Source: a virus (lineage: Duplodnaviria > Caudoviricetes). Taken from it: 64,000 nucleotides of DNA. Positions 3,231-58,442 of the stretch are shown in pieces. Below the pieces are notes generated by a model, which saw only the letters and a list, made by a program, of their open reading frames with translations, searched no databases and was not told the origin of the DNA. The position numbers and the translations under genes are program-made. The stretch covers positions 3,839-67,838 of the IMG/VR virus record IMGVR_UViG_3300032244_000667; one strand, given 5' to 3'. The number at the start of each line of letters is the position of its first letter. The stretch's first letter is position 1.

Positions 3231-3239
3231 GTTGAAAGC
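3231..3239 (+). promoter_or_regulatory. Putative phage late promoter element GTTGAAAGC
   Basis: Exact motif, intergenic, 35 nt upstream of ATG 3266; followed by CATATAG. Confidence 0.8.
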
Positions 3240-3265
3240 CATATAGCAAGGTAGTAGCAGTTCTC

Positions 3266-6200
3266 ATGTCAGAGGCTCCTTTCACTGGGTTCGGAACTTT
3301 CTCCCGTCCGGAAATAGGCCTGATTTCTGACGGATCTCAGAATTTAGGAGAGATTTTTGACTCGGACAGACGAACCGCGCTGAGAAATATTTTACTGGAC
3401 CCGGAGATATTAGATTCGATTAGCGGCATATCTCAAAGTGTTGGTAGAGAGGATCTCCGGTCAGTATCCGGTCTTTCCAGTCTTTTGCTCCCATCACTGA
3501 ACGTTCAGTCCCAAGTATTTTACGACGTCATACCCACTCGGCTGTTCGTTAACAAAGAATTTTATGGTACTAACTCGACCCTGGGGGGATCGGGGAACCC
3601 CCAGGTAAAGCAACCCAACGTCGTGTTGTTTAACGGCCTCATTAAGTGTGCTGGAGTCGAGTACCAAGCTAACACCATCGGGGAGAGTCTGTTCACCAAC
3701 CCTGTCCGTCAGAAAGTCTCTCTATCTACATCCCGTTCCAGCCTATTTAATACCGAAGCCGATACGGTTAACCCTGGATTTTTTCTCTCAGCCAAATACC
3801 CTGGATCTGTACGAGTAAGAAAACGGTCCCACGTTAATAGGATTCTGGTACCACTAGCATCGTTTACCGTCCGCTCCTCAGTTGCAGAAACCCCCTCCCA
3901 CACAATCCGTGTCAATATCGACAATGGCAATACGGGAACGAGTGTACCGGTCAGGTTGCTAGCCACCAAAAACACACCGCTAAGGATCTTTTGTCGACTT
4001 GGGGTGGGGTCGATTCGGTTCACGTTTACCGATTCATCGGCCCCCTACTTCTTCGGTTACCAGATCCAGCCGATCCAGCAGCGACCAAACCGTCCTGTGG
4101 TAGAGTTTCTCCCTACTATCCCTATCTCCCAGTCCGTAGGGTCGGATACATTCACTTTGAATCTGGACATAACCTCCACTGGGTACCAAAATCTTTACGA
4201 CCTTTACCTGTACGTGTATGTTAATCCCGAGAAGGTGCGGGGAATCGAATTCACCGGAATAAACATCAAGGAGACTCCAGACCGACGTGATCTGGGTCTG
4301 ATCGGCTTTAATAACCTCGAGACGTTTAAGGTATCGGGGGGATCAATGTCTATTCTCCCTTTGTGGCTCAAGACCCTTAGCACAAAACTGACCTCCATTG
4401 GTCTTTCTGCCAGCAGTGACACTTGGCGCAACGGCCCGATGAGTTGGTTCGACTACAGGGACTCAACGGCCGTACCGTCCCTCTCCTTGCCCCCATATAC
4501 CGCAATCAGCTATCTAACCATCCCTAAACGCGGCACTATGGTGAATGAAAACGGGACTGGCTGGTCCGATGCAGTGTTTCAAAAATACATAACCAATGCG
4601 TCTCGGACTGCTGGGACGGACTACCGCCAACTGACCACGTTAACCAGTTTGGTTCTTGTCAACCAGTTTCGTGGACTCAACCCACGTTTTGATGATGTAG
4701 CCCCCAACCTAAGAGAGCTACAGTGGTCTAGCCCTGGGAGATCTGTAGACCTTGGTGCTGTACCTCAACGTTTCTTGTTTGGAACATTGCCGCGTATAGC
4801 TAAAAATACCAGCTTGATTACTTACAATATCTCTGGTTCAGGGGCGCAGGGAAACATAAATGAAATCGGCATTTCTACAGATCCCTCAAACTCTGGACAC
4901 ATTTCTAAATACCGTATTAGCCAATTTAATGTCTCGGGTTTACTAGAACTTGGCAGTAATATCACCGGTTTTATAAATAATCCTGCAGAAGATTGGTCAG
5001 AATGGAGATTAAATTGTACAGCCATTCAGATTAATTCAGCCGGCTCTGGCATTAGCATTTCTCTGCAAAACGGGAAATGGGATTCCTTGACCACTTTATC
5101 CATAGATCGTTGTGGAGGAGCACAGTTCACCACCCCCTCGACCGCTTTGCAGGCACCTAATCTAAGTAGTCTGGATTTAGTTATCACGGGAACTACTGGC
5201 TCTATGCCAGGATTAGGGTCATCGTCATCTAATAATACGGGACAACTTGTTAGTTTTAATGTTTCAGGTTCAAACAATATCACTGGAATTCCAACTAATG
5301 GTATTAACTATTTCCTTCCTATTAATTTTGCCCCTCCAAGGGGTTCTGATGTTGGCCATAAACTTACTAGTCTTATTGCTTCAGATAACACCTTAACTTA
5401 CCGTTTTCGCCGCAATGATCTAATCAACTTGCACTCCCTAACCAGGCTAGAGTTTGCCAGAAGCTTAATGACCGGAAGGTTTCCCCAACTACCCCTAGAT
5501 CAGTTCTTCGAGACAGTTAGCAAAAAGATCACAACTTCTTGTTCTAATTCTAATATTTATGATATCAGAAACTTGTCTATATCCAATGAGAATTTTTATA
5601 CCTCCAGGGACCTTTTTTATATGGACGCCTTTAGTCTTAATGCGTCCGGAGGGGGGGCCTTACTACCAACATTTCAGGGTACTTCCCGGTCTCAGATTTC
5701 GTATGTAAATTTGGCTAATTCCCAAAGAAGTACCTATCCAAGTGATTGGGCTATTTCATCTCTCAGTGGGGCATGCATATCCCAAACTGATGGGGCTACT
5801 CAAATTACAGGATTAACCCTAAACCGAATTATCCAATCCGCATTGGGATCACCCTGGCACCCAGACGATAATGTTTATACTTTAACTGGAAGTTCAGGAC
5901 TTAGGCAGAGAGTTTTAGTTAACGACTCGATTAGGGGGTCGGCCACTGGCATAGAATTATCCCGTGTCATATCAGTATCAGATACCTCAATAACCATTGA
6001 TAGGGATATAGCTGGAACATTACCTGGAACTCTGTTCTTTACTAGAAATACTAACCCCATAGGTGACTGGTTCGAGTCGGGATTTATTGATACCCAGAGA
6101 GTCAATATATCGAATTGCAGACTGTCTGGATCGTTAAATATTAGATCTGGTATGCTAAAAATATCAGATTTGGACATTTTTGCTCTAGATCTATCCGAAA

Positions 6201-6826: not shown

Positions 6827-6829
6827 CTC

Positions 6830-8410
6830 ATGTCTGGACTTTATACACGATCTAACCTGTCAGAGAACGGACTAAACGCTTCCGAAGCTCTTCAAAAACT
6901 GTATAAACCTCAAATTCAAAATGACATAAATCTATTCGCGTACTCGTCAGTACTGAGGTCTCAAATATCTTCCCCCTCTGACATATTTGCTCTTATTAAC
7001 TTTCCAATCTCTAATATATCTGGAACCGTCTCACTTCGGACCAAATTTTTAACTAACTCGTATACATTTTCTAATGACAACGAGGTCTGGTTTGAAAAAG
7101 TCGGGGTACCCATAGACAAAAGGACATCCTTAGAAACAAACGGAGCCGATTTACGCTATTCGGTGAATGGTTCAGTGGCTAATGCTCTTGTAAAGAGCGT
7201 TGGGAGTGGGTACTATGTTGTAGATTCTAGCGGTCAGGAGGTATCTTCATATCCAGCTACCGTAGACGTCAGAGTCATAGGAATTTTATCTTACTCTGAT
7301 AACGCTGTTGTCCGGATCACAGTAAATTCTAATGGCACAATTGGGAATGAAGTCAGAATTATCGAGGGTGGTACAGGGTACACAGACTACGAATCTCTGG
7401 AATTACTGCCTCTGTGTCAGGGGCAAGAAAAAGAGTCGTTAAACAGATGTATTAGGTACACCTCCGCTAACTCTTTAGCTCAGATTAATCCATCTATTTC
7501 CGCCTCAATTAAGAACATAAAATATACCTACACGGTAAAATTTTCTGATTCTGACGGATTCTTTTTGTACGACACTAGTTCGAATAAATGGTTGTATCTG
7601 GGTTCGTTTTACAACAACATCTCCCAGTTGACCGGTACTATAACTTTGTCCAGAATAGATAGTATCGAGCCAGAAAATTTGGGGTATTTATATAATTTAA
7701 ACGCCAGATCATTCTTTTTTAGTTACTTGTATGCATATACTATACCAAACAATTTACTTTCTACACTGACTTCTATTACCAGTTCAGTAGAATCTATCAA
7801 TAGCAGTTTACCACTATTTGTCCAAAATAGTCGCCCTTACCGGTTTAATACAGATTCTGGAAACCCCTTGGGGATAACCTACAATGTATTCGAAGGTGCG
7901 AACATAAGTTCCGACTACAGAGTAATTTTTCGAGACCCTGATGGTGTGTTGGACCAGGAATCGGTTGACTTCTTCACACTTCGTGATACCTTGTCAGGAC
8001 AAAACAACTATAAGATAGGTAATGTCACCGTACCAGGAATCTGGTTATTCTCCGGAGACAAATACCAACGTGCGTTTAGTTCTGACGACAAACCCTTTTT
8101 CAGCGTCCTTGGGCGCAAATACCTAAGTCCGGCACTCTACAATTTAAACGGCAACGAACTATCCGAATCCGGACAGCTAAAATACTCGATATCAGCCTCA
8201 TACAGAAATCCAGTGACCGGAACTGTACGTGGTTTTAATACTGAGGTCGGAACCTTGGTACAGGCAATATCCAGTACTACTGGCCGGGGTGGATTCGTAT
8301 ACCACAGGCCACTGACTGTGACGACAGTGTCAGGAATCAGTTCGTGGCCCATACTATCCTACACGGATAACTCTGGAGTCACAAGAGACGCAAAATTTCT
8401 AGCTATTTAG
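6830..8410 (+). CDS. Virion structural/tail-fibre-associated protein
   Basis: 526 aa, 3 nt after the previous gene; N-terminal GLxxxSNLSE..AL motif shared with neighbours; VKSVGSGY/IIEGGTGY cyanophage-type repeats. Confidence 0.55.
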   Translation: MSGLYTRSNLSENGLNASEALQKLYKPQIQNDINLFAYSSVLRSQISSPSDIFALINFPISNISGTVSLRTKFLTNSYTFSNDNEVWFEKVGVPIDKRTSLETNGADLRYSVNGSVANALVKSVGSGYYVVDSSGQEVSSYPATVDVRVIGILSYSDNAVVRITVNSNGTIGNEVRIIEGGTGYTDYESLELLPLCQGQEKESLNRCIRYTSANSLAQINPSISASIKNIKYTYTVKFSDSDGFFLYDTSSNKWLYLGSFYNNISQLTGTITLSRIDSIEPENLGYLYNLNARSFFFSYLYAYTIPNNLLSTLTSITSSVESINSSLPLFVQNSRPYRFNTDSGNPLGITYNVFEGANISSDYRVIFRDPDGVLDQESVDFFTLRDTLSGQNNYKIGNVTVPGIWLFSGDKYQRAFSSDDKPFFSVLGRKYLSPALYNLNGNELSESGQLKYSISASYRNPVTGTVRGFNTEVGTLVQAISSTTGRGGFVYHRPLTVTTVSGISSWPILSYTDNSGVTRDAKFLAI

Positions 8411-11400
8411 ATTTACAAAACAGAAATACGAGTCCTTTGCTTTTTCTCCACTCCCTATATACTCCAACACGTCTTCGTCCAGAGATGGATTAAGTAGAGT
8501 ATCAATTCGGAAGCGGTGGCTGTAGGAATTTAAATTGAGAGTCACCGGACTGCTAAGAACCGTGATGGCGTCTAGACCAAAGAACTCGAGCTTTTCAGTA
8601 ATCCGGAGGACATGACCCCCCAGGGCAGATTGACCAGGGTTCCCCCAAATCACATCGTGGTTGCCTATTGAACCCGTAGCCAGTTCGTTATCACTTTGAG
8701 CCACACCGGTCAGTAACGGGTTACTAGTTGCGTACGGAGGGTAGCAAATTCCTCTACTAAATTCCGGCTTATCGAACCCAAAGGGGGTTACCCGGTCCGC
8801 TGGAGGCCCAGGGATTTCGCTCAAGCTTGGTGATAGGGTTCCAGTGGAATATGTTAGCTTCAGAACATCTCCAAATGACACCCCTTCACCCATATCAACC
8901 TTGGCGTACTGAAAAGCCAAATCAGATTCGGTATAAAACTCCACAAACTTTCCACTAAACGACGCCACCTCCGCACCACCTGTTAGGACCGATGCTAATG
9001 TTGTGGTAAACGCTAACAGGTTGAAACCAGACACCACGACTTTTTCGACTGACAACGTCAACGGTGCTACGAATCCGGCTACTCCGGTTGTAAATCCGGA
9101 GTCATTTGCTACCCTGGTGCATGTGACCGTCACCGGAGACAACCAGGCAGGACTGGAGAAAGCCGGCAACCCGTAAAGTGTTGGATCGTTGCTAGCCGCC
9201 ACGGTGCCCAGGTTAGAGACCGTGTAGTATTTGTTGTTCAGTCCGGTACTGGGTACTGTCGGGTTTGTCCACAGATACAGTTGTGCGGATCTGGGGGTTA
9301 GGTTAGCCGCCGCTGCGGTGAGGTGATTCGGACTCCCACCCAGATCATTCACACCCAGCAGTGTGGCGTCCGACCCGATGGAGTTATTCACCGGCAAGGC
9401 GTTCACAATCAGTTTACCTCCCTCCCCCAACCTATTAGGTTTCAACAAAAGTCCAATGTAGTTTGACCCCCTAGGCTGTCCAGAACTATATCTAGACTCC
9501 CCCAGAATGATATTGGGGATGGAACTAAATACTCCAGATCCATTCCCGTATAGACCTACCCCAATAGCTTCAGAGTTTAAAATACCTCTAAAACTATTTT
9601 TTAAAAACCCATCAATAGGTGTGTTTTCTAAGCTCGGAGTCTGTCCCAGATTGTATGGGCTCCCTTCGGAAATCTTCCACCAATCAGGTTTAGAGTCAAG
9701 AGGTGCTCGACGAAAATCAGGTATGTAAGATCCGTCGGTTAAGTCGCTATAGTTCTTGTGTTCAGGTCCTGGGGAGGCTATACGCCCACTCCACATCGGT
9801 GTGGGAGACTCTGAGACTACTGGGGAGACTCGGAGCACATATGGGCCGGCCACTAACCCGGTTGTGGTGCTGGTAACAATTGTTCCATTGGTTGCCAGTG
9901 AGATAACTACAGCCGGTGACAAGGCCCCACCATTGAATTCCACCAGCTCGTATTTTACCGACGCGTTCACATCTTGCAAGATGCTGATAATACCCGTTAA
10001 CTGCAAGGAAGACACGGACCACGCCCCATTGGATCCCGACAAAGTCACATCCCAGTCCGACCCGTAGTAAGTTTTGGTTCCAGAGAGTTCTAGGGTGTTG
10101 ATAAATAGGTTGGGTTCGGCTGGAATACTAGCAGTACTGTCTACTCTATCCGAACCTCCCCGGAATAACCGGATGGTGATAGGGACATATCCCACCCAAT
10201 CATTAGCCCCAGCCCCAGTAAGCAATTTGTATTTACCTGCTAACCCGGAGGTATTAAAAGAGCCGGAAGCCACGTACGAGTCGGATGGTCCCCTTGTAGC
10301 AGCGGTATCGGTATCAAATACAGTTAACCAACTTGCTGAGTTCCCAGCAACATCCAAGTCTATCCGGATATTCACATTAGTTTGAACGGTGAAAACGTAC
10401 GACCCCGGGGTAATTAGCAGGTAACCATCCCACCTAATCCCCCAATTATACTGTTCACCCCTTAGTGGTAAAGGATTTTCCCTCCACCTCATGTTAGAAT
10501 CCTGTACAATGCTTCTTTCAGATTCTCCAATCTGTGTTCTAGCGTTAGGATATGGATCCCAACGACTCTCAATATATGATTTAGTGTACCAATAGTTACG
10601 TTGGATCAGGGGTAAAATTAAACCGCCCCGACTAGTTAACAACCTGGGAGATGTAGTAGTAACAGAGTCATCAGGACCACCCGGATTGGTAACTCCGGTA
10701 CTGCCGGGATTATCAGTAAACCATTTGGGTTTGTTTATTACCGATATCGGCCGACTCATGGTAAAAATAGAGTTTACAAACACACCTGATCCAACAATCT
10801 GCCTGATTGCTAATAAATTGCTCAGGCCACTATTTACAGTCCAAGATCCCGGGGACTCGAGAAGCAAAGTAACATCCGAACCGGAAATGGATAATTTCTG
10901 CCCACCAGTCACTGTGTACGAATCCAGACCGATTACAACAGCACTTCTGCCCCCTAAAATAGATGACGCGGCTATAGGTGTGACACCATCTGGCCCTAGC
11001 AACGCAGCCACAGTGACAACACTGGTGCTGGAGTCAAACGTAAACCGTATTCTACCGATATCTACTGGGCCCTTATCGATGTAAAACTGGGCGTCAGGTC
11101 CGCTATGAAAGCCCTGAATACTGCCCTTACCATAAAACGAATCGACAAAGGATAACCTATCCTCAATCCGGATTCGGGGTCTTGTGGATCTCCCCAGTCC
11201 AGACAATGGTGATAAAAAGGAACTGTTGATACCCCCCTCCAGAAAGTTTCGGGTTATCGCCCAATCATCCGCGTTATAATCTCTCCCGTATAAGGTTTTT
11301 TCCGCAACGTCAAGTACGTTTATCTTACTCAGCAGATTGTTAAGGGTTTTGAAATTATCACTGACATCGGACAGAGCGTTTGACCGTTTTAGGCCCAAAA

Positions 11401-11509
11401 ATCTAGTATCGGTCTCTCTCTTTCCTGCCTGTGCCCTTAAATAATCAACCAACGACCTATCCGTAAAAGTATTTACCAGATTAGGTGTCCGGTCTATGCG
11501 GGTTGCCAC
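8399..11509 (-). CDS. Virion structural protein with PA14-like carbohydrate-binding domain
   Basis: 1036 aa; YNWGIRWDGYLLITPGSYVFTVQTNVNIRIDL is PA14-like; GTG start 35 nt downstream of a minus-strand late motif. Confidence 0.6.
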   Translation of the reverse strand: MATRIDRTPNLVNTFTDRSLVDYLRAQAGKRETDTRFLGLKRSNALSDVSDNFKTLNNLLSKINVLDVAEKTLYGRDYNADDWAITRNFLEGGINSSFLSPLSGLGRSTRPRIRIEDRLSFVDSFYGKGSIQGFHSGPDAQFYIDKGPVDIGRIRFTFDSSTSVVTVAALLGPDGVTPIAASSILGGRSAVVIGLDSYTVTGGQKLSISGSDVTLLLESPGSWTVNSGLSNLLAIRQIVGSGVFVNSIFTMSRPISVINKPKWFTDNPGSTGVTNPGGPDDSVTTTSPRLLTSRGGLILPLIQRNYWYTKSYIESRWDPYPNARTQIGESERSIVQDSNMRWRENPLPLRGEQYNWGIRWDGYLLITPGSYVFTVQTNVNIRIDLDVAGNSASWLTVFDTDTAATRGPSDSYVASGSFNTSGLAGKYKLLTGAGANDWVGYVPITIRLFRGGSDRVDSTASIPAEPNLFINTLELSGTKTYYGSDWDVTLSGSNGAWSVSSLQLTGIISILQDVNASVKYELVEFNGGALSPAVVISLATNGTIVTSTTTGLVAGPYVLRVSPVVSESPTPMWSGRIASPGPEHKNYSDLTDGSYIPDFRRAPLDSKPDWWKISEGSPYNLGQTPSLENTPIDGFLKNSFRGILNSEAIGVGLYGNGSGVFSSIPNIILGESRYSSGQPRGSNYIGLLLKPNRLGEGGKLIVNALPVNNSIGSDATLLGVNDLGGSPNHLTAAAANLTPRSAQLYLWTNPTVPSTGLNNKYYTVSNLGTVAASNDPTLYGLPAFSSPAWLSPVTVTCTRVANDSGFTTGVAGFVAPLTLSVEKVVVSGFNLLAFTTTLASVLTGGAEVASFSGKFVEFYTESDLAFQYAKVDMGEGVSFGDVLKLTYSTGTLSPSLSEIPGPPADRVTPFGFDKPEFSRGICYPPYATSNPLLTGVAQSDNELATGSIGNHDVIWGNPGQSALGGHVLRITEKLEFFGLDAITVLSSPVTLNLNSYSHRFRIDTLLNPSLDEDVLEYIGSGEKAKDSYFCFVNLNS

Positions 11510-11535
11510 GTTACGACTGATTGCTGTTCTATAGG

Positions 11536-11544
11536 GCTTTCAAC
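11536..11544 (-). promoter_or_regulatory. Putative late promoter element GTTGAAAGC (drives gene starting 11509)
   Basis: GCTTTCAAC on + strand; 35 nt to start; divergent partner at 11554. Confidence 0.8.
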
Positions 11545-11553
11545 GACAAACCG

Positions 11554-11562
11554 GTTGAAAGC
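11554..11562 (+). promoter_or_regulatory. Putative late promoter element GTTGAAAGC
   Basis: Exact motif 35 nt upstream of ATG 11589. Confidence 0.8.
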
Positions 11563-11588
11563 AATACAGGTAGTAAAGATCTGGTACT

Positions 11589-12564: not shown

Positions 12565-12702
12565 TCGGGTTAGTGGTTACGAAAAACCGGACGGCAACAC
12601 ACAACGTGCATTACAGTCCGGCGGGAGAGTTGGATTGCTTTTGGGTCAAAGGTGTGTCCTCATCCCTTACTGAGCTTTCACCAGTTGAACCCATATTGGG
12701 GG

Positions 12703-12864: not shown

Positions 12865-12877
12865 GATACGTAGTATT

Positions 12878-13509: not shown

Positions 13510-13518
13510 GTTGAAAGC
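13510..13518 (+). promoter_or_regulatory. Putative late promoter element GTTGAAAGC
   Basis: Exact motif 35 nt upstream of ATG 13545. Confidence 0.8.
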
Positions 13519-13544
13519 CATATATACGAGATAGCTAAACCGCC

Positions 13545-13874: not shown

Positions 13875-13880
13875 GGACCC

Positions 13881-13889
13881 GTTGAAAGC
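13881..13889 (+). promoter_or_regulatory. Putative late promoter element GTTGAAAGC
   Basis: Exact motif 53 nt upstream of ATG 13934. Confidence 0.75.
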
Positions 13890-13933
13890 TATATGAGAAT
13901 CATTGTTTTCGGGGGCTATTCCCCACACCCGTC

Positions 13934-20028: not shown

Positions 20029-20059
20029 AGTTCCTCCCGCTAGTTACGAATACACATGT

Positions 20060-20070
20060 ACTATAGCACA
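20060..20070 (-). promoter_or_regulatory. Putative host sigma70-type extended -10 promoter (TGTGCTATAGT) for the trx-sigma-nuclease operon
   Basis: TGnTATAGT in the short intergenic gap upstream of 20028. Confidence 0.55.
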
Positions 20071-20077
20071 AATTCCG

Positions 20078-21736
20078 TCACAAGTAGTTTGTCCGTATCG
20101 ATCCTCGTCCCAGCCTGCCTGTGGCTCTCTGTTGACCCCCCTGGTAATTAGCCACCGGCAAATGGATACGACTACCGCCATGAGCGGCTTTAGACGAATT
20201 CATGATCTCCTCCCTGTAGATCTTCAAGCCGGCACAAAACGAGTCGGTGAAATCGTCATGCTTGGTGTACGGGAAAGCCGTCAGCTCGGACATAAACTGG
20301 GGCAGGTTGGGGATATCTGAGTAAATCGATACCCTGCCGTCTTCGGCAACTGGAGCAACCTCGTTGGCCCTCAGGACCTTATCCTTGCTAGGGATGATCT
20401 CCCTCACCGGGATCTGGAGCTCCGTCCTCAGCATCTGAATCAACGGTAATCCGGACGCCCTGGCCTCTACATACAAGGTTCGCACCCTCCACATCTTCAA
20501 CCACACCGGCATAGCTTTAAGTAGCTCGGGGAACTCCATTTTCTCCGAATACACATGAAGCAGATGGAGCTTGCGAGTCTTTTTGACGACTCCGAATACG
20601 CAGATCACAGACGAGTCGTTCTCCTGACCCTTCTTCAGAGCAGTATCGGCAGTGGCGTAAACATACTCGTAGTTCTCCCGGTTTTTTTCGTGGTACTCGA
20701 ACCAAAAATCCTTAAATATCGCCCCACTCTCCCCCCTAGGATTCCCCTGATACAGCACCTCGAACGTCTTTTCATCCTGCTTTTTAATGGACTCTAGGGC
20801 TTTGATCGGGAAGAACTCCGGCCAGTGAGATTCTCCAAGCTTCCTACCCAACGGGTCGGTCTCCTCATCAATACACAGGGCGGGAACATTAAGCTGCTTC
20901 CATCCCTCCGGATCACTAGCAATCAGCCTCCCTGACACATCCTCTTTGTGGAACCTGGTACCGATACTGGCTACACAGTTATTGGGCAGGCCTCGGGTGA
21001 GAAACTGAGTCGCACACCAGGAAAAAGTTGATTCGAGGACTTGCGAGCTATTACCATCTTCCAAAAGGTCATCGAGGATGCCAATCCCGGGCAAGTCGTC
21101 TTCGCTGATTACTCCGTATCCGAATCCGGTCACACCACCCCCCGCCGATGCGGACATGATCAGTCCACCCTGCTCAGACCGAACCGTCTTCAGGTTAGAG
21201 TTTTTCTCTAGTACCAGGCACTCAGGAAAGACCCAGTGAAACGCTTCGCTGGTGGTGTAAGCCAATATCGCCCTAGAGTTCTCCTGTGACAGCTTTAGGG
21301 CGTATGAGGCCATAATCATCTGAGCCGTGGGAGATCTGCCTATCTGCCAACTGGGCATCAGCTTACTGAGAAGCATGGATTTTCCCGTCCTGGGTGGGAG
21401 GGATATCACCGTCCTCCTGTAGTCCGGTTCCCCATCACATATGCTCTGCACGTAGTGACAAATCAGCTCATGCACTTTGTATGGTACGAATGTACCGCTG
21501 CTAGATACCTCACGAGTGATATACTTAGCAAATGTTGTGAACTCTGTGCGGCACCGCAACCGCAACAGCTCTTTTCGATCATCAGTACCAAGCCCATCAA
21601 TTCTGGAGGTCATCTCGCGAACCAGGGCCTTCTCTTCCGCCAATTGGACCTTATTCACAATTCGTTTGGCCCTCTCGATCCGTAATGGCGTCGTATAGTG
21701 AGCTTTCACCCGGCACGGTGGGCGTAGCAACTCCAC
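20078..21736 (-). CDS. terL: Terminase large subunit (true start probably downstream, e.g. GTG 21658)
   Basis: Walker A SLPPRTGKS, Walker B GILDD, RuvC-like ATADTA and KHDDFTDS. Confidence 0.93.
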   Translation of the reverse strand: MELLRPPCRVKAHYTTPLRIERAKRIVNKVQLAEEKALVREMTSRIDGLGTDDRKELLRLRCRTEFTTFAKYITREVSSSGTFVPYKVHELICHYVQSICDGEPDYRRTVISLPPRTGKSMLLSKLMPSWQIGRSPTAQMIMASYALKLSQENSRAILAYTTSEAFHWVFPECLVLEKNSNLKTVRSEQGGLIMSASAGGGVTGFGYGVISEDDLPGIGILDDLLEDGNSSQVLESTFSWCATQFLTRGLPNNCVASIGTRFHKEDVSGRLIASDPEGWKQLNVPALCIDEETDPLGRKLGESHWPEFFPIKALESIKKQDEKTFEVLYQGNPRGESGAIFKDFWFEYHEKNRENYEYVYATADTALKKGQENDSSVICVFGVVKKTRKLHLLHVYSEKMEFPELLKAMPVWLKMWRVRTLYVEARASGLPLIQMLRTELQIPVREIIPSKDKVLRANEVAPVAEDGRVSIYSDIPNLPQFMSELTAFPYTKHDDFTDSFCAGLKIYREEIMNSSKAAHGGSRIHLPVANYQGGQQRATGRLGRGSIRTNYL

Positions 21737-28820: not shown

Positions 28821-28844
28821 GGCAGATGTTCAGTCTTCTACAGG

Positions 28845-28853
28845 GCTTTCAAC
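28845..28853 (-). promoter_or_regulatory. Putative late promoter element GTTGAAAGC (baseplate operon)
   Basis: GCTTTCAAC on + strand, 33 nt upstream of GTG 28820. Confidence 0.8.
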
Positions 28854-28854: not shown

Positions 28855-28863
28855 GTTGAAAGC
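28855..28863 (+). promoter_or_regulatory. Putative late promoter element GTTGAAAGC
   Basis: Exact motif 30 nt upstream of GTG 28885; forms a 9-1-9 palindrome with its partner. Confidence 0.8.
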
Positions 28864-28884
28864 AGGGTAGAAGCTATTAATTCC

Positions 28885-29382: not shown

Positions 29383-29391
29383 GTTGAAAGC
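29383..29391 (+). promoter_or_regulatory. Putative late promoter element GTTGAAAGC
   Basis: Exact motif 43 nt upstream of GTG 29426. Confidence 0.8.
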
Positions 29392-29425
29392 CTTGTAGAA
29401 GAATCAGCCAATCCCGTCATCACCT

Positions 29426-35960: not shown

Positions 35961-35965
35961 TAGCT

Positions 35966-36000
35966 GGGCGGGGCGGGAGACTTCTCCTTCCCCGCCTTTC
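35966..36000 (+). terminator. GC-rich hairpin, possible terminator
   Basis: GGCGGG...CCCGCC stem followed by a short T run directly after the stop and just before a late motif; coordinates approximate. Confidence 0.4.
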
Positions 36001-36002
36001 TC

Positions 36003-36011
36003 GTTGAAAGC
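36003..36011 (+). promoter_or_regulatory. Putative late promoter element GTTGAAAGC
   Basis: Exact motif 30 nt upstream of ATG 36033. Confidence 0.8.
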
Positions 36012-36032
36012 TAAACAGACACGATAAACCCC

Positions 36033-42878: not shown

Positions 42879-43350
42879 AGTCTTAGTTCTAAATTTTGAC
42901 TACACACCAGTAAACATTGTGCGGGGTAGAAGGGCTATAGTCCTACTACTCAAAGAACGTGCTCACTATGTTTCGGTGAGGGTAATACGGTTAGGGGGGT
43001 ATGTCTCTCTCCCCCTAAGTCGCACCGCTAAGGAGAAACCTACCAAAGCAGCTATTTACCGTCGTGACGGATACACCTGCCAGTACTGCGGATCTACGCG
43101 CAACCTTACCATCGATCACCTTATACCCAAGTGCCGGGGAGGACAAGATACATGGGAAAACCTCCTCCTGGCGTGTTCAAAGTGTAATATGGTGAAGGGC
43201 CATCGCACACCTGAGCAGTCAGGTCTGAAGCTAGGGCGCAAGCCCAGGCCACCACTTCCCAAAGTCATAGAGCTAGTTCAGAGTTCCACCGATCCGGAGT
43301 GGTCCCAATACGGGTACGGCACACCCCCCAGACTGTTGAAAGCCACATAG
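42751..43350 (+). CDS. McrA-like HNH endonuclease (start uncertain, possibly 42820 or later)
   Basis: VLVLNFDYTP..RAIVLL, IYRRDGYTCQYCG..LTIDHLIPKCRGGQDTWENLLLACSKCNMVKG. Confidence 0.9.
   Translation: MAAGASLYSNKSIRVIRTKRYGTMLSSSASFVADRELPHPETEVLVLNFDYTPVNIVRGRRAIVLLLKERAHYVSVRVIRLGGYVSLPLSRTAKEKPTKAAIYRRDGYTCQYCGSTRNLTIDHLIPKCRGGQDTWENLLLACSKCNMVKGHRTPEQSGLKLGRKPRPPLPKVIELVQSSTDPEWSQYGYGTPPRLLKAT
43335..43343 (+). promoter_or_regulatory. Putative late promoter element GTTGAAAGC (inside the HNH 3' end)
   Basis: Exact motif 31 nt upstream of ATG 43366. Confidence 0.8.
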
Positions 43351-43365
43351 AGACCCTAAGATCCC

Positions 43366-44334: not shown

Positions 44335-44561
44335 TCGAGAAGATCCAGAAGCCAATTCGGTTCGATAAGGACGTAGAGGTGTTGGTTGTGGCAAGGGATG
44401 GAGAGAAATTTTTCGTATCTGATTCCGACCCGAGTCTTGACCTGTCGCTCGAGGACATGAAAATCCGCCCGCTGCTCGAGTGGGCGATGATCACGAATTA
44501 CCCGATCCGGAAATTTGTCAAAGCACAACGCGTTCTGAGCGCCCGGTATTTTGGTGTATAA
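44331..44561 (+). CDS. Small hypothetical protein
   Basis: 76 aa, GTGA overlap with the previous ORF. Confidence 0.55.
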   Translation: MIEKIQKPIRFDKDVEVLVVARDGEKFFVSDSDPSLDLSLEDMKIRPLLEWAMITNYPIRKFVKAQRVLSARYFGV

Positions 44562-44581
44562 GCCCCAACATTCTATGGTTT

Positions 44582-44592
44582 TGTGGTATAGT
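44582..44592 (+). promoter_or_regulatory. Putative extended -10 promoter TGTGGTATAGT
   Basis: Intergenic, about 20 nt before ATG 44613. Confidence 0.55.
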
Positions 44593-44612
44593 ACTGATTA
44601 CCCTCAAGAAAT

Positions 44613-45395
44613 ATGACTACTTACTATACTTACTACTCCTACGAAGAGTTCGGACGAGGCTACATTGGATATCGAAAGTGTCCTGATGACAAAACCCCAG
44701 AAACCGATCCCTATTTGGGGTCTTATTCAGATAATACCTTTAAACCAACTAATAAAATTATTCTAACTGTTCATCACTCTGTAGATGAAGCATTACTAGC
44801 TGAAATAAAAATACAAAGGCTTTACAAAGTAGTAGAGAATCCCCATTTTGCTAATAGAGCTTATCAGACTAGCACTGGATTTAGGTTTGCTGCTAGCGGT
44901 GTAAACCACCCAATGTATGGGAAAACCCAGAGTAAATCAGCGAGGGAAAAAGTATCTAAATTTCGGCAATCTATAGATTTTTCGGGTCCCAACAACTCAT
45001 TTTTTGGCAAAACTCACTCGAAAGAAACTCGTAAAAGGATTTCTGAATCCCTGCTATCTTTGGAGCTAAAGGGGGGAAAAAATCCGATGTACGGGAAAAA
45101 ATTTTCTGAGGAACACAAGAGAAAATTATCAGAAGCTAAACAGGGAGATAAGAATCCGTGGAAAGGAAAAAATTTGCCCGAGGAGCACAGGAAAAAGATT
45201 TCACAGTCTTTGTTGGGCGAAAATCACCCTCGCTATATGCCCAGGAACTGGCATCACCCCGTCCACGGAACAGTCTTACAAAAATCTGCACCTGAGCTAG
45301 CAAGGCTATTTCCGGAACAAAACCTGATCCCTGGGAACTTGAGTTCGGTAGCTAAGGGTAACCAGTCTTACCACAGGGGATGGAAAGTATGTTAG
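44613..45395 (+). CDS. GIY-YIG-like (Seg-type) homing endonuclease with NUMOD3 repeats
   Basis: YYTYYSY..GRGYIGYR..YLGSY; repeats PMYGKTQS, SFFGKTHSKETRKRISE, PMYGKKFSEEHKRKLSE; AT-rich. Confidence 0.85.
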   Translation: MTTYYTYYSYEEFGRGYIGYRKCPDDKTPETDPYLGSYSDNTFKPTNKIILTVHHSVDEALLAEIKIQRLYKVVENPHFANRAYQTSTGFRFAASGVNHPMYGKTQSKSAREKVSKFRQSIDFSGPNNSFFGKTHSKETRKRISESLLSLELKGGKNPMYGKKFSEEHKRKLSEAKQGDKNPWKGKNLPEEHRKKISQSLLGENHPRYMPRNWHHPVHGTVLQKSAPELARLFPEQNLIPGNLSSVAKGNQSYHRGWKVC

Positions 45396-45428
45396 TATAT
45401 AGGAAGCAAAATACCCACCATCTTTCCA

Positions 45429-46637
45429 ATGACACCCTCGTTTAAAGAAGACTGGCTAAAAACGACATTAGACAATGAGCCCAACCTCCCCCTTTTGGTT
45501 ATCGACTACAGGGTCTACGCCCACCAAATTCACTCGTTTTCTGAAAGCTGTCTGGACATTGTGGGTGAAGATGAGGCTAAATTCCGTACTGTAGTCCGAG
45601 CACTTTGGGCTTACCGGCTAAATAGAGGTGTGGACTCTATACCCGAACGGGATTTTACCGCTATCGTGGTAGATGACTTTAAGGGGAACTTTCCTGGAAC
45701 TGAAATAACCGGGTATTGGCGCCACCTTGAATGTTCGAAGCTAGGACTACCTGAGTACAAAGGGGGGAGACCCAGTAAACCCTCAATGTTCCCTATAATT
45801 CTTGAAGAGGGCTACAAATACATAAAATGCTCAGGATCTACCTTTCATTTCTTTGACAAGGAATTTTACGAAGCTGACGATATTGCTGGAAAAATAGCAC
45901 GAATTCAACGGAACAATCCTGTTATTGACCGTTACATTTTATTGAGTACGTTGGATGGTGATTGGCAAGGTCTGGTATCCGACGAACACAAGACAGTTTG
46001 GTGTAATACGGGGCCTTGGCATTACAGAATCCGGACTGAAGCCGAGGTTTGTGATTACTACCTCCGGAAGGAAAAATTACACATCAAAACCTCCCGAGAG
46101 ACATACACGGTAAAAGTAGAAGTCGGAGACGCTGGAGACAATCTTTTGCCAGGGTCACCGTTACGTCTCTTCGACCTGTACGAAGAAGATCCGGTATGGG
46201 GCTGGACCGAGGACGAAGAAGCCACACTGAGGGACATTATCGCGGACACTAAGCCGTCCAACCGCCGCGACCACCTAACTAACGCGGGCCGGTTCCTTAA
46301 ATCAATCGGAATGTTCATGCCTGAAATCCCACCGCCAACACAGTACGAAATCGCCTCATTTGGTGAAAGAGCTGAACGTGAACGGCGTGAAGCAAGGCAC
46401 CCCGGGCTGCGCGGCCTTAACAAAAAGTATTGCATGGGGGTTGCCGACCCCGGCCGGTTCGACAAATGTGCTAAGGTTGTTACTGACGACAATGCTGCCC
46501 GGGAGAGGATTAAAGAGTTGGAAGAGCAGCGCAAGAACGATCCGGACAACCACAACCCTGGGCTGCTAAAGGCCCTGAAGGAGTCCCGCAAAGACTACAA
46601 AGCCTCCTTGATTCGTTTTTCGGAGGCTAATGGCTGA
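45429..46637 (+). CDS. 5'-3' exonuclease / flap endonuclease (T4 RNase H, T5 D15-like)
   Basis: LVID, YKGGR, EADDIAG, LDGDWQGL, GDAGDNL acidic motifs. Confidence 0.85.
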   Translation: MTPSFKEDWLKTTLDNEPNLPLLVIDYRVYAHQIHSFSESCLDIVGEDEAKFRTVVRALWAYRLNRGVDSIPERDFTAIVVDDFKGNFPGTEITGYWRHLECSKLGLPEYKGGRPSKPSMFPIILEEGYKYIKCSGSTFHFFDKEFYEADDIAGKIARIQRNNPVIDRYILLSTLDGDWQGLVSDEHKTVWCNTGPWHYRIRTEAEVCDYYLRKEKLHIKTSRETYTVKVEVGDAGDNLLPGSPLRLFDLYEEDPVWGWTEDEEATLRDIIADTKPSNRRDHLTNAGRFLKSIGMFMPEIPPPTQYEIASFGERAERERREARHPGLRGLNKKYCMGVADPGRFDKCAKVVTDDNAARERIKELEEQRKNDPDNHNPGLLKALKESRKDYKASLIRFSEANG

Positions 46638-49540: not shown

Positions 49541-49545
49541 CAGTC

Positions 49546-49554
49546 GTTGAAAGC
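49546..49554 (+). promoter_or_regulatory. Putative late promoter element GTTGAAAGC
   Basis: Exact motif 32 nt upstream of GTG 49578. Confidence 0.8.
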
Positions 49555-49577
49555 CATATATAAGACTATATGGTTCT

Positions 49578-51377: not shown

Positions 51378-51382
51378 GTACT

Positions 51383-54427: not shown

Positions 54428-54434
54428 CCACACC

Positions 54435-54977: not shown

Positions 54978-54986
54978 CCCAATCCC

Positions 54987-54995
54987 GTTGAAAGC
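54987..54995 (+). promoter_or_regulatory. Putative late promoter element GTTGAAAGC
   Basis: Exact motif; ATG 55001 begins at the conserved A six bases after it. Confidence 0.8.
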
Positions 54996-55000
54996 CCTAT

Positions 55001-55438
55001 ATGGGTAAGTCACTCTCCCGGCTTAAAGATTTCTCATCCTTTGGTCTCGACACCCAAGAGATGATCTTGTCTCAGCTTAGCGCGATCGACCTTGACCGTA
55101 TCGGTCCAAAGTCCATTGCGACTGTAGGTAAAAGCCTCATCAAGATTATCTCCCAGAGTCACCGATACCAGGAAGAATCTGACAACGACGAGGTCCGGGA
55201 GAATTGGCTAGCTGTTCGGGAGATGAGCCTGGATATCCTCGAATCCATCTTGGCGAGGTTCCAGGAGCTTAGTGACAAGGCCGAAATCGCCGAGTGGGAC
55301 AGGTCGGCCGTGCTCAGCCTCCTGGCCGACATTAGCAAGGTGTGTCATGATGAGCAGAAACGCACCGAGGATCAGATAAAGGCCGGGGCGGGCAAAGAGC
55401 TCAGCACCGAGCTGTTGAACGAAATCCTAGGAATTTAA
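55001..55438 (+). CDS. Helical late protein, possible terminase small subunit
   Basis: 145 aa, all-helical, C-terminal LSTELLNEIL; TerS assignment is speculative. Confidence 0.45.
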   Translation: MGKSLSRLKDFSSFGLDTQEMILSQLSAIDLDRIGPKSIATVGKSLIKIISQSHRYQEESDNDEVRENWLAVREMSLDILESILARFQELSDKAEIAEWDRSAVLSLLADISKVCHDEQKRTEDQIKAGAGKELSTELLNEILGI

Positions 55439-55442
55439 CACC

Positions 55443-55655
55443 ATGATGAACATCGATCAGGCGAGAGCCGCAGACCCGGTAGTGAAGATGGCCGATGCTG
55501 GTGGCATCTCGATCCTCGACCCCAAAAAGCCCCAAAAGCACAAGGAACGGGAGGATGTATCCGATGCTGGCGGTGTAACCGAGCCGGTGTTCCAAGCCGA
55601 GGAAAGCAATCTGAATATCGAGATTCCCCAGGGTTGGAAGGTTTCCGGGCGTTGA
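55443..55655 (+). CDS. Small late protein with C-terminal IEIPQGWKV tag
   Basis: 70 aa; ACCATG start; stop codon lies inside the next late motif. Confidence 0.6.
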   Translation: MMNIDQARAADPVVKMADAGGISILDPKKPQKHKEREDVSDAGGVTEPVFQAEESNLNIEIPQGWKVSGR

Positions 55656-55659
55656 AAGC
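55651..55659 (+). promoter_or_regulatory. Putative late promoter element GTTGAAAGC
   Basis: Exact motif 31 nt upstream of GTG 55682. Confidence 0.8.
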
Positions 55660-55681
55660 AATATAGATAGTAAGTACTGCT

Positions 55682-57517
55682 GTGGATTTCCAAGACCCGC
55701 CCAAATCAGAAAAAGTTGCTCGTAACCCGAACAACTTCAACATCCTGAAGGGTGGAAAGGTCGATCCGCGCTCCAAGCTGTATCAGAGGTCGGTTGCTGG
55801 ACGCGAACAGCTCAAGGATTACCTGAGCCGGCTGTCAAATAGCGGTGCGGATGAGGCCGATGTGTTCATGGCTGGCGTCAAGAGCTTGATGAATCGGGGT
55901 CATGGTTATGTCGGCGCGTATCTGGATAGTAAGAATCCGGGACGTAGATACGAAAAGAACCAGGCCATGGCCATCACCGACAAAGTGATGACTGATGAAG
56001 GGATTGGCGAACATCCTGGTGCTAGGTTGACCAAGCCGAAAGTAACAGACGAGGAGGGCAATATCGACAAAGAGGCCACTAAGGAGGCGAGGGACAAACG
56101 GAAAGAAGCTAATGCGGGGCGCGGATCAGGTCCCCAACAGGCTCCAGGTCCCTCGGCTAAACCGGTTGGTCAGCAACGCAAAGAGGGAAAGCGCGAGAGC
56201 ACGGGTCAAGCCCTAGAAGATAGCCGCCGGGAAGGTATAGGTGACGTAGCTAAAGGTCCGGCCTCGGAGTGGCAAAATACCCTCGAGAGTAGAATGAAGG
56301 GTGAGGCAAGCACCCAGGATGTGTTGTCCGCATTCCAGAAACAGTATCAGAGCCAGATTGGTGGTAAGAAAAAAGCCGCTCCTGGTGAAGGGGCTCCTGG
56401 TCCCAGCCAAGCTCCGGGCAGTGCAGCACAGCCCCCGGCCGAAGAGGCTGTTACCCCCGAAGAAGAAACGGAAGAGACCGGGAAACCCTCGGCTGACGAA
56501 GTTACCATCTCAAGTAAGTTTAAAGAACTGGTTGAGGGTAATATCAAGAGCAATTTGCCCTCAACTGACAAAAACGCACTTGAGGGTAGTATCCAAGAGG
56601 CTATAGAAATCCTTGAAGATGAGTATGATGTGGATCCAGAAGTTGCCAGAGCTGCGATATTTAGAAGGTTCAATAATAAGTTGATTGGTGGGAGAAAAAT
56701 TGTTTTCGATCCATCTTCTGCTCCCGAAAGGCCCGGTCAGAAAGAATCTGCACCCGAGCCGAAGGCTGCGGCCCCTACCGCTGCGCCGGAGGCTGAAACA
56801 CCATCCGCTGCTCCAGAAGCTAAAACTCCACAACCCGGACAGCAAGAGGCTGCGGCACCACAGGGCGGCGGTCAAGAGGCCCAGGCTCCGGCCTCTGCGG
56901 CACCGAAGAAACCCAAAGGTGGTCTCAATATCCCCAAACAACCTGCTCGCAGGGGCGGTGGTGGATTCACCCCCGAGATTGGTAAGCAGGCCATCGACAC
57001 CATCCGCCAAGCCGCATCTGAGGGCAAGAGCGTGGAGGAGATTGTCGAGCAATTCAATCAGGGCAACCTGTTCCCGGGAGGTCTAGTCACCGACACCGCC
57101 CAAACCAATCCGCTGGAGGGAGGTAGCACACCGGCAAGTCCGGCTTCCCCTAAAGCCCCCCAGACCCAGGAGGAGAGAGGTGGCAGCCTTCTTGACGAGC
57201 AAGGACAGGCTAAGGACTTCCGCAAGTCCGGTCCTCAACCAACAGGAGGTGGTGGTTCCAGACAGCTCCCTCTCCCACTGGGTAGAGATAATAGTGCCGC
57301 TAAGTTAAAGGGTAGAGCCGATGTGGAAAAGAGGCGCCTGGCGAAACAGGAAAAATCCCTCGGTAAGCCTAGTCCCCGTCCTCGCAAATCAGGGAAATCC
57401 CCAGTCCAGCCAGAGCTCTTTACAAAGTCCGGCAACCCGCGCCAATTCAATACGGGAGAGGGGGGTAACATGTCATACGACGAATTCTCCCAGTCCGTAC
57501 GCTCCATGATGCGGTAA
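55682..57517 (+). CDS. Large, largely disordered late protein (possible internal head protein)
   Basis: 611 aa rich in A/P/E/K/Q/G with AAPEA-type repeats; late motif upstream. Confidence 0.6.
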   Translation: MDFQDPPKSEKVARNPNNFNILKGGKVDPRSKLYQRSVAGREQLKDYLSRLSNSGADEADVFMAGVKSLMNRGHGYVGAYLDSKNPGRRYEKNQAMAITDKVMTDEGIGEHPGARLTKPKVTDEEGNIDKEATKEARDKRKEANAGRGSGPQQAPGPSAKPVGQQRKEGKRESTGQALEDSRREGIGDVAKGPASEWQNTLESRMKGEASTQDVLSAFQKQYQSQIGGKKKAAPGEGAPGPSQAPGSAAQPPAEEAVTPEEETEETGKPSADEVTISSKFKELVEGNIKSNLPSTDKNALEGSIQEAIEILEDEYDVDPEVARAAIFRRFNNKLIGGRKIVFDPSSAPERPGQKESAPEPKAAAPTAAPEAETPSAAPEAKTPQPGQQEAAAPQGGGQEAQAPASAAPKKPKGGLNIPKQPARRGGGGFTPEIGKQAIDTIRQAASEGKSVEEIVEQFNQGNLFPGGLVTDTAQTNPLEGGSTPASPASPKAPQTQEERGGSLLDEQGQAKDFRKSGPQPTGGGGSRQLPLPLGRDNSAAKLKGRADVEKRRLAKQEKSLGKPSPRPRKSGKSPVQPELFTKSGNPRQFNTGEGGNMSYDEFSQSVRSMMR

Positions 57518-57519
57518 AC

Positions 57520-57530
57520 TGTGTTATGAT
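57520..57530 (+). promoter_or_regulatory. Putative extended -10 promoter TGTGTTATGAT
   Basis: Fills the 22-nt gap before ATG 57540. Confidence 0.55.
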
Positions 57531-57539
57531 CGGGGTACT

Positions 57540-58442
57540 ATGAATACAGTTGTTTACCAGTGGTTGAGAAAAGAAGGAACCCCATACTATATTGGAATTG
57601 GTAATCCCAGGAGGCCTTACAGAGGCAGAAGACTCTGTGGTTGCCCTCCTCCGAGGGATAGGATCGTTATCCTGCATGAGCATCTTGAGTGGGAGGAAGC
57701 TTGTAGAATTGAAAAAGAACTTATTGCTTTTTACGGAAGGAGGGACCTCGGGACAGGTATCTTACGTAACCTGACTGATGGAGGAGAAGGTATTGTTAAC
57801 CTTTCTGAAAAGTCCAAGGGAAAAATATCCAAAGCTAACTCAGGAAAGAATCACCCTTTCTTTGGTAAAGAACGTCCTGAGGAAACTAAAAAGAAGATAT
57901 CAGAAGCAAACTTGGGTAAAAAACGTACTGAAGAGGCCAAAAAGAAAATGTCAGAAGCTCAATCCGGCAAAAAACTTTCAGAAGAGACAAAATTAAAATT
58001 ATCAAAAGCTAGTCTTGGCAGAAAACATACAAAAGAGGCTATAGCAAAATTTTCCGGAAAAAATCACCCGATGTATGGCAAGAAACATACAAAGGAGTCG
58101 AAGGAAAAAATGTCTAAAGCTAATTCTGGAGAGAATAATTCCAGGTTCGGTAAAAATCATTCAGAGGAGACTAAAAAGAAGATATCGGATATGCACAAAG
58201 GTAAAAAATTATCGGAAGAGACTAAGAAAAAGCTATCAGAAGCCGGGATAGGAGAAAAAAGCCATAATCGTATCCCAAGAGACTGGTGGCACCCGGTTCA
58301 CGGAACGGTTTTACAAAAATCAGCGTCTGAGTTGGCAAGATTATTTCCAGAGCAAAAGCTCAATAGGGGCCATTTGGCAGAAGTTGCTAGAGGGGGAGGA
58401 AAAAGGTTTCAACACAAAGGCTGGATATCGTTGAAAGCTTAG
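57540..58442 (+). CDS. GIY-YIG-like homing endonuclease with NUMOD3 repeats
   Basis: VVYQW..TPYYIGIG..R..EEACRIEKELI..LRNLTDGGEG; many HSEETKKKIS repeats; AT-rich. Confidence 0.85.
   Translation: MNTVVYQWLRKEGTPYYIGIGNPRRPYRGRRLCGCPPPRDRIVILHEHLEWEEACRIEKELIAFYGRRDLGTGILRNLTDGGEGIVNLSEKSKGKISKANSGKNHPFFGKERPEETKKKISEANLGKKRTEEAKKKMSEAQSGKKLSEETKLKLSKASLGRKHTKEAIAKFSGKNHPMYGKKHTKESKEKMSKANSGENNSRFGKNHSEETKKKISDMHKGKKLSEETKKKLSEAGIGEKSHNRIPRDWWHPVHGTVLQKSASELARLFPEQKLNRGHLAEVARGGGKRFQHKGWISLKA
58430..58438 (+). promoter_or_regulatory. Putative late promoter element GTTGAAAGC (inside the endonuclease 3' end)
   Basis: Exact motif 31 nt upstream of ATG 58461. Confidence 0.8.

Follow-up and report, generated by a model that had tools for sequence, protein, structure and literature searches.

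A short word repeated in front of phage genes poses the question of whether it is a promoter and, if so, what reads it and where transcription begins. The word, the 9-mer GTTGAAAGC, recurs in the window, i.e., the whole 64,000-nt stretch of DNA analysed here, which comprises bases 3839-67838 of the IMG/VR virus record IMGVR_UViG_3300032244_000667 (G000), a single 67,838-nt assembly estimated by CheckV to be ~42% complete. The contig is a freshwater relative of the TIM5-like cyanomyoviruses, and the GTTGAAAGC motif behaves as a lineage-wide promoter family. In TIM5-like phages and their relatives from fresh water it is probably the chief promoter specific to the phage, recognised by the phage's own sigma factor, starting transcription at a conserved A at motif position 15 (A15) and belonging to the middle/late class.

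The window holds 14 exact copies of GTTGAAAGC, 12 on the plus strand and two on the minus strand (11536-11544 and 28845-28853). Dinucleotide-preserving shuffles predict 0.39 copies, none of 100 shuffles reaches 14, and an unbiased k-mer scan ranks GTTGAAAGC as the top over-represented 9-mer, with 10 of the 14 copies extending to CGTTGAAAGC; the extra 3.8 kb of the 67.8-kb assembly contain no further copy. Annotated genes fill 96.4% of the window, leaving 3.6% non-coding, and all 14 copies are intergenic or overlap only the last ≤16 nt of a gene. Every copy is co-oriented with the next open reading frame (ORF), at distances from motif to start codon of 35, 35, 35, 35, 53, 33, 30, 43, 30, 31, 32, 14, 31 and 31 nt; eleven of these fall at 30-35 nt, taking ATG 58461 for the last site. 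The sequence RYAK occupies offsets +4 to +7 in 13 copies, the exception being the copy at 13881 (ATGA). A preliminary description, made from the letters alone, had listed the same 14 copies (its 11544 and 28853 are the 5' ends of the minus-strand copies), a chance expectation of ~0.5, RYAK in 13 copies and none deep inside a gene, and these counts are reproduced; it was also right that every copy faces a start codon, but placed ten rather than eleven at 30-35 nt. Copies with one mismatch show no overall enrichment (11 vs ~12 expected).

Outside the window, a search with the phage sigma factor described below yielded 28 IMG/VR loci from ~12 distinct lineages (sigma identity 56-93%, G+C content 44-57%). 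Exact GTTGAAAGC is present in 26 of them, spanning G+C contents of 44-55% and sigma identities as low as 56%, at 2-8 copies per locus of 7-21 kb; the two copy-less loci (L024 and L019) span operon interiors only, and a longer sibling contig (L070) has five exact copies. In a 127-kb relative, 34 copies are spread along the whole length, 32 of them intergenic. Each of the 94 non-redundant sites across the relatives has an ORF start 12-119 nt away (27-38 nt in 66 cases), and instead of many randomly oriented intragenic copies, only two sites lie deep within a same-strand ORF. A position profile built from 80 non-redundant sites, in which the 9-mer is invariant by ascertainment, gives the consensus C-GTTGAAAGC-NNN-R-T-A-G-R-R-R, with C at -1, a purine at position 13, T14 in 69 of 80 sites, A15 (65 A, 15 G), G16 in 53 of the 80, where C never occurs, and purines at positions 17-19. 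T14 and A15 carry 1.2-1.3 bits and G16 0.7; in the same 80 sites no position from -30 to -2 exceeds 0.32 bits, i.e., there is no conserved -35 element, and no real information is found past +19. Since information is confined to -1 to +19, the signal is a single block of ~20 bp. The divergent pairs in the window, with spacers of 1 bp and 9 bp, are consistent with the lack of a -35 element, although the profile may leave room for non-conserved sigma-4 contacts. The tighter of these arrangements, a 9-1-9 back-to-back palindrome, occurs in 11 IMG/VR contigs, eight from the lineage and three that are AT-rich, unrelated and devoid of the downstream TAG, the latter being about chance level.

The marine clade uses a different word at the same places. 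Cultured relatives of the contig were reached via proteins only, and megablast with 12 kb of the window found no cultured-phage DNA relative. Identity to cyanophage S-TIM5 and its relatives (genus Aurunvirus) is 57% for TerL and 41% for sigma, with identical gene order, and 39 of the 49 window ORFs align in order on S-TIM5 between ~89 and 159 kb (tblastn). The exact 9-mer GTTGAAAGC shows no excess in S-TIM5; GTTTAAAG is present in 36 copies vs 12 expected, ~25 of them 26-57 nt before annotated start codons. This marine form, GTTTAAAG-N6-TAG, has a looser TAG that, compared with the freshwater clade, is shifted downstream by one base, and 40 kb of S-TIM54 contain nine copies of GTTTAAAG and no GTTGAAAG. 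At least seven motif positions are orthologous between the window and S-TIM5, at the heads of genes 8399-11509, 13545, 13934, 49578 and 58461 and on both sides of the baseplate/tail-fibre gap; as each clade has its own word at these positions, the promoters have changed in concert. The sigma helix of region 2.4 also differs, reading SLTFQVLNYLRD in the window and CLQFHMLNYLRD in S-TIM5 (SLTFQVL vs CLQFHML, in sigmas that are 41% identical), and is invariant across the freshwater clade. Such a concerted change of motif and sigma would fit co-evolution between a specificity factor acting in trans and the sites it recognises.

[quoted passage not shown] Its ORF matches Sigma70_r2 at 34.8 bits (cutoff 24) and phrog_351, and its nearest NCBIfam family is SigB/F/G (TIGR02980), matched at 38.1 bits vs a cutoff of 234.35 over profile positions 2-200 of 227; judged by profile, it appears to be a distant member of the SigB/F/G group, below the curated family cutoff. 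An AlphaFold model built with 15 homologues has a mean predicted local distance difference test (pLDDT) score of 73, rising to 86-91 for residues 165-227. Foldseek aligns the model over ~225-260 columns with Bacillus subtilis SigD and SigB, sigma-S, sigma-28 and Staphylococcus aureus SigB, and residues 6-233 align to sigma-70 361-604, also to full-length sigma-28 and SigB, with Z of 9-11 (VIA). The identification of this gene as a sigma, proposed from the letters alone, is borne out by the domain match, phrog_351 and the full-length structural alignment. The companion claim of a lost or degenerate region 4 does not survive: the model gives the C-terminal domain a confident fold that aligns with sigma-4, and because Pfam detects region 2 only while the model folds, degeneracy is true of the sequence and false of the fold. 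Each of the five genomes searched has one Sigma70_r2 gene. The phage's own sigma most likely reads the motif.

It may have a partner. ORF 18289-19011 (minus strand, 240 aa), conserved in S-TIM5 and in each of the 27 relatives whose sequence extends that far, has a 22-nt overlap with the sigma stop. Its N-terminal ~100 aa match only the uncharacterised structure 2k0m, and its C-terminal half bears an invariant Y-H-x-D-H...N; a fold search gave no clear match, with non-significant echoes of the RNA polymerase (RNAP)-interacting domains of CarD and Mfd. The protein might work with the sigma as a partner or be an HNH-like nuclease.

Where transcription starts is best seen at ORF 55001-55438, which aligns with its S-TIM5 orthologue from the first residue. 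Orthologues from four diverged freshwater lineages (69-97% identity) have a single in-frame start, at motif +14 or +16, together with an in-frame stop located at the motif or inside it; an ATG at +14 makes A15 the A of the ATG, and at +16 the A falls at position 17. As this is the sole ATG, transcription must start at or before A15 if the promoter serves the gene. At A15 itself a conserved purine follows a conserved pyrimidine. A start at A15 is likely on these grounds, and the ORF 55001 mRNA would then be leaderless or have a 2-nt leader; the ATG position argues against a start at G16 or further downstream. If A15 is +1, this supports placing the 9-mer at about -14 to -6, with T3-G4 at -12/-11. 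The geometry proposed in the preliminary description, with the YA of RYAK as the -1/+1 dinucleotide and the 9-mer at about -14 to -6, gains comparative backing from the orthologue ATGs.

A host-type extended -10 promoter, TGTGCTATAGT, lies at 20029..20077 (minus strand), before the thioredoxin-like/sigma gene pair, and is kept as TGnTAnnnT in 16 IMG/VR relatives and S-TIM5, the form being TGnTATAAT in S-TIM5 and most of the relatives. In S-TIM5, TGnTATAAT sites are dense in the early region rich in auxiliary metabolic genes (AMGs) and tRNA genes and sparse in the structural region, and promoter-like GTTTAAAG sites are absent from the early/AMG region, a distribution that reads as the layout of a two-stage programme. 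Similar TGTGCTAnnnT words are found in the window in the gaps 61634-61671 and 62677-62768, the latter after a terminator-like hairpin.

In such a programme, host core RNAP with the host primary sigma would transcribe early genes, including that of the phage sigma, from host-type extended -10 promoters. The phage sigma would then direct the polymerase to the C-GTTGAAAGC-NNN-R-T-A-G-R-R-R block, where sigma domains 2 and 3 would read the 9-mer as an element of the extended -10 type, and no conserved -35 element would be used. Initiation at A15, five bases after the 9-mer, would give 5' leaders of ~15-22 nt and one leaderless mRNA. The regulon would comprise virion genes and two blocks that reach nucleotide-metabolism and replication genes. 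Because the sigma gene stands at the far end of the motif-led operon that begins at 28853, its own product would also drive positive feedback.

Several points weigh against this account. Should ORF 55001 be translated from read-through transcripts alone, the leaderless argument would fall. In freshwater metatranscriptomes, two runs hold pieces of related strains, as short contigs only; none of these RNA contigs, which lack 5'-end information, begins at the motif, and one runs across the 55651 copy. The conservation of T14-A15-G16 exceeds, in our judgement and with no reference promoter set for comparison, what start-site preference alone would produce. The co-variation of sigma and motif rests on two clades, and a sigma-alignment search found no intermediate sigma clades between 56% and 41% identity; the co-occurrence of sigma and motif is partly by construction, all relatives except L043 having been found via sigma. 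A confidently folded sigma-4-like domain, as modelled, would be unexpected at a promoter that lacks a -35 element. Finally, the sigma of phage phiEco32, gp36, makes essential sigma-4 contacts at -37/-34 and is stabilised by the co-factor gp79 (PMC12276001); as the seemingly single-element promoter of phiEco32 needs sigma-4, 'single element' may describe conservation only (PMC12276001).

A more unusual version of sigma-directed initiation is doubtful. In it, a full-length group-3-like sigma, its folded sigma-4 reading no conserved DNA, would recognise, alone or with the translationally coupled ORF 18289-19011 protein, one ~20-bp block from about -15 to +5, with base-specific recognition at T(-1)A(+1)G(+2), so that the promoter would be built more like that of a single-subunit polymerase than like a bacterial one, and would produce leaderless mRNAs at some genes.

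Reading of the motif by a host alternative sigma, e.g., a SigF-type factor that the phage sigma copies so as to boost or replace it, with the motif mimicking a host regulon, is unlikely. The nearest families of the phage sigma are indeed cellular, SigB/F/G and FliA/WhiG, and its structural alignment extends to SigB, SigD and sigma-28; the SigB/F/G match nevertheless stays far below its cutoff, and a pattern scan of ~185,000 species genomes found no close cellular homologue of the sigma, and a genome scan found no cellular relative of ORF 34622 either. SigF is the nearest cellular sigma family by profile, and the stringent, autoregulating SigF of Synechocystis PCC 6803, a group 3 sigma, resembles the phage factor in that the phage sigma gene too lies in a motif-led operon (PMC2532724). 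The pilA1 promoter read by SigF, however, is bipartite, with TAGGC at -32 and GGTAA at -12 (PMC2532724), whereas the window motif is a single block of unrelated sequence, with no second conserved element at positions 19-30 of the kind expected from the bipartite group 3 pattern, which has two conserved elements ~12-17 bp apart, and the profile match is 38 vs 234 bits. The joint change of motif and phage sigma between clades also speaks against a host reader.

Quite unlikely, too, is a promoter for an unrecognised phage RNAP, either a divergent single-subunit enzyme or one packaged in the virion. The motif does resemble T7/SP6-type promoters in being a contiguous ~20-bp block, in which a specificity region is followed by a conserved TA and a G-purine start region, and for several proteins of 1000-1700 aa neither Pfam nor PHROG gives a match. 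Yet these large proteins are orthologous to S-TIM5 proteins annotated as virion structural, and no T7-type polymerase (PF00940) is found in the complete S-TIM5 genome, four 91-127-kb relatives or this record, in a search that detected the P-SSP7 polymerase control at 2.7e-69. The sigma gene, by contrast, is universal and under a host-type promoter, which fits a sigma cascade. The start also differs, as the likely first base is the A of the TA rather than the next G, and initiation at G16 would cut off the conserved ATG of ORF 55001. With the polymerase absent and an ATG at A15, the T7-like reading was rejected.

It is very unlikely that the motif only accompanies promoters of another kind, as an operator bound by an activator or repressor of the phage or as a processing or translation signal acting at the RNA level. 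Copies between co-directional genes (3231, 49546 and 54987) are also compatible with an RNA processing site, and the RNA contig across the 55651 copy would suit one. Against this, the divergent gaps of 64 and 79 nt need two promoters each, and nothing in them is conserved apart from the back-to-back motifs; the motif has no further conserved element ≤30 nt upstream of it or past +19, and a -10 hexamer at sigma-70 spacing is not enriched (8/102 vs 0-6 at control offsets). Scarcely credible, and rejected, is GTTGAA or TTGAAA as the -35 element of a bipartite sigma-70/sigma-B-type promoter with its -10 element 12-18 nt downstream and its start near the start codon: TTGAAA matches TTGACA at 5/6 positions, the 30-36 nt to start codons equal a -35-to-start distance, the sigma has a sigma-4 fold and GTTTAA of the marine clade resembles the sigma-B -35 element, but positions 20-30 carry <0.2 bits, TAnnnT at 16-18 nt after TTGAAA (8/102; controls 0-6) and sigma-B-type GGnTA at 12-15 nt (5/102) are near control levels, the conserved TA 6-7 nt after the hexamer is too near for reading by sigma-4 and sigma-2, and the ORF 55001 ATG at +14 would precede the start site.

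If the motif is a promoter read by the phage sigma, its regulon can be outlined from the genes behind it. Of 27 promoter-like sites in S-TIM5, 18 stand immediately before a gene with the annotation 'virion structural protein', a class that makes up ~1/5 of all genes, and several others lead blocks in which a virion gene comes next; S-TIM5 virion proteins have orthologues behind eight of the 14 copies in the window. The earlier statement that almost all targets are virion genes holds for most S-TIM5 orthologous sites, but fails for the copies at 36003 and 43335, which head metabolism/replication blocks. The former block runs on into NrdB, an HNH gene, NrdA and dUTPase, the latter into an exonuclease and a DUF5906 primase-like gene, and neither contains a terminator or host-type promoter above shuffled expectation. 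As these blocks enter ribonucleotide reductase (RNR), dUTPase, exonuclease and primase-like genes, 'middle/late' is a safer label than virion only. The same caution applies to the unknown ORFs at 11589, 36033, 43366, 55001 and 55682, which had been flagged as late/virion products: tblastn finds no S-TIM5 homologue for four of them, and the orthologue of the fifth, ORF 55001, is annotated hypothetical. Since the flagged ORFs have no virion-annotated homologue in S-TIM5, the motif marks co-regulation and does not establish virion membership.

Known phages provide two useful comparisons. The T4 late promoter word is TATAAATA, to which neither GTTGAAAGC here nor GTTTAAAG in the marine clade is related. 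At T4 late promoters, gp55 acts with gp33 and the gp45 clamp, and initiation proceeds without an equivalent of sigma-4 (PMC2988020). Both systems would have a phage sigma-70-family protein that redirects host core RNAP to a short -10-region element without a -35 element, and in both the promoters are on both strands, mostly before virion genes. Unlike the tiny gp55, which is sigma-2-like only, the full-length window sigma also has sigma-3 and a folded sigma-4-like domain, and the window motif, unlike the T4 promoter, has T-A-G strongly conserved at the likely start site. The architecture of phiEco32 is closer: there, too, a divergent phage sigma with sigma-2-like and sigma-4-like parts reads a -10-region word at middle/late promoters, and, if A15 is +1, T3-G4 at -12/-11 would correspond to the T-12/G-11 fork junction of gp36 (PMC12276001). 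Here, however, upstream conservation amounts to a weak C at about -31, and the phage family and host phylum differ. A new sigma/promoter pair that uses a known strategy is the most likely description. No promoter or motif for the TIM5-like lineage is described in the cyanophage literature searched, which includes a 2022 paper on TIM5-like phages and leaves the original S-TIM5 description outside its scope.

TIM5-like cyanophages (S-TIM5 and cultured relatives) infect marine Synechococcus, and the clade of this contig is found in freshwater samples. A promoter word together with its likely sigma gives a regulon map, pointing to the unknown genes that would be switched on alongside virion genes, and helps to recognise operon heads in uncultured relatives. 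The co-change of sigma and promoter between the freshwater and marine clades, in which one position reads G vs T and the spacing shifts by one base, makes a testable case. With S-TIM5 and its host both available in culture, start site, timing and sigma dependence are open to direct test. The pair might also find use as an orthogonal switch for gene expression in cyanobacteria.

The individual sites show how the promoter blocks are disposed. The first, GTTGAAAGC-CAT-ATAG at 3231..3249 (+), lies 35 nt from ATG 3266, where the gene orthologous to S-TIM5 virion protein 93375-96956 starts. Next come two divergent blocks spaced 9 bp apart: the one at 11526..11544 (-), 35 nt from GTG 11509, leads to a gene whose S-TIM5 orthologue, virion protein 98911-103089, is likewise equipped with a GTTTAAAG, and the partner block, GTTGAAAGC-AAT-ACAG at 11554..11572 (+), is 35 nt from ATG 11589 of an unknown 84-aa ORF. 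The block at 13510..13528 (+), 35 nt from ATG 13545, precedes the orthologue of S-TIM5 virion protein 103983-104555, which is motif-led there too. At 13881..13899 (+), 53 nt from ATG 13934 of the orthologue of S-TIM5 virion protein 105232-105987, the block is of a T-G-A subclass (TATATGA), and this TGA form is retained in relatives.

The blocks at 28835..28853 (-) and 28855..28873 (+) form the 9-1-9 back-to-back pair of the baseplate/tail-fibre gap, with an orthologous pair in S-TIM5 (122790/122802) and in S-TIM54. The minus-strand member faces GTG 28820 and leads the baseplate-TerL-thioredoxin-like-sigma operon; the plus-strand member, 30 nt from GTG 28885, leads the tail-fibre side. Next on this side, the block at 29383..29401 (+) is 43 nt from GTG 29426 of a 1728-aa tail fibre that is 54% identical to that of S-TIM5. 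A G+C-rich hairpin followed by TTTCTC (GGGCGGGGCGGGAGACTTCTCCTTCCCCGCC) at 35961-36002 looks like a terminator that closes the tail-fibre block. Right after it comes GTTGAAAGC-TAA-ACAG at 36003..36021 (+), 30 nt from ORF 36033.

Downstream, the block at 43335..43353 (+) overlaps the end of an HNH ORF and is 31 nt from ORF 43366, and that at 49546..49564 (+), 32 nt from GTG 49578, leads the orthologue of S-TIM5 virion protein 146496-148676, again motif-led in S-TIM5. The block at 54987..55005 (+) has A15 as the A of ATG 55001, and that at 55651..55669 (+) is 31 nt from GTG 55682 of an unknown 611-aa ORF. The last, at 58430..58448 (+), overlaps the end of a NUMOD3 endonuclease ORF, lies 31 nt from ATG 58461 and has an orthologous site at 152704 in S-TIM5.

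Two one-mismatch copies, both on the minus strand, have a downstream TA and lie upstream of TerL and PhoH. The first, GGTGAAAGC-TCA-CTA-TA at 21702..21710, is ~50 nt from the likely TerL start, within the 3' end of a baseplate-hub-like gene; it is retained in most relatives, as exact GTTGAAAGC in two of them (L009 and L025), and may be a weaker internal promoter or be conserved merely through coding sequence. The second, GGTGAAAGC-TCA-GTA-A at 12674..12682, stands 118 nt before the PhoH ATG. It is followed, within 12565-12682, by a stable hairpin with a U-run (-33 kcal/mol, z = -2.95), at which transcripts would end short of PhoH; for this hairpin Rfam gives no match, and it could act as an attenuator, form a short RNA or terminate transcription of the upstream gene.

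Public runs that contain parts of the sequence are mostly freshwater metagenomes. On the particle side, the window encodes baseplate, tail-lysozyme, tail-fibre and terminase genes; its other genes include RNR with an intein, dUTPase, a 5'-3' exonuclease, a DUF5906 primase-like NTPase and several homing endonucleases. The RNR large subunit (38601-41633) is split by a LAGLIDADG-domain intein and has a glutaredoxin domain at its C-terminus. A related-strain DNA contig from run X2 skips 941 nt in 44542-45484 and 1025 nt in 57513-58539, both at NUMOD3 endonuclease genes (44613-45395 and 57540-58442), and RNA run X12 shows the first skip too; the two X2 skips indicate that the NUMOD3 genes are strain-variable, present in some strains and missing from others, as expected of homing endonucleases. 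An enrichment of ACGACGAG in the window phage and S-TIM5 was rejected as a signal, all copies being sense-strand coding for acidic D-D-E peptides. Two further words are over-represented in the whole contig, the palindrome ATCCGGAT (26 copies vs 5.5 expected) and GCTCGAGC (14 copies vs 2.3 expected).

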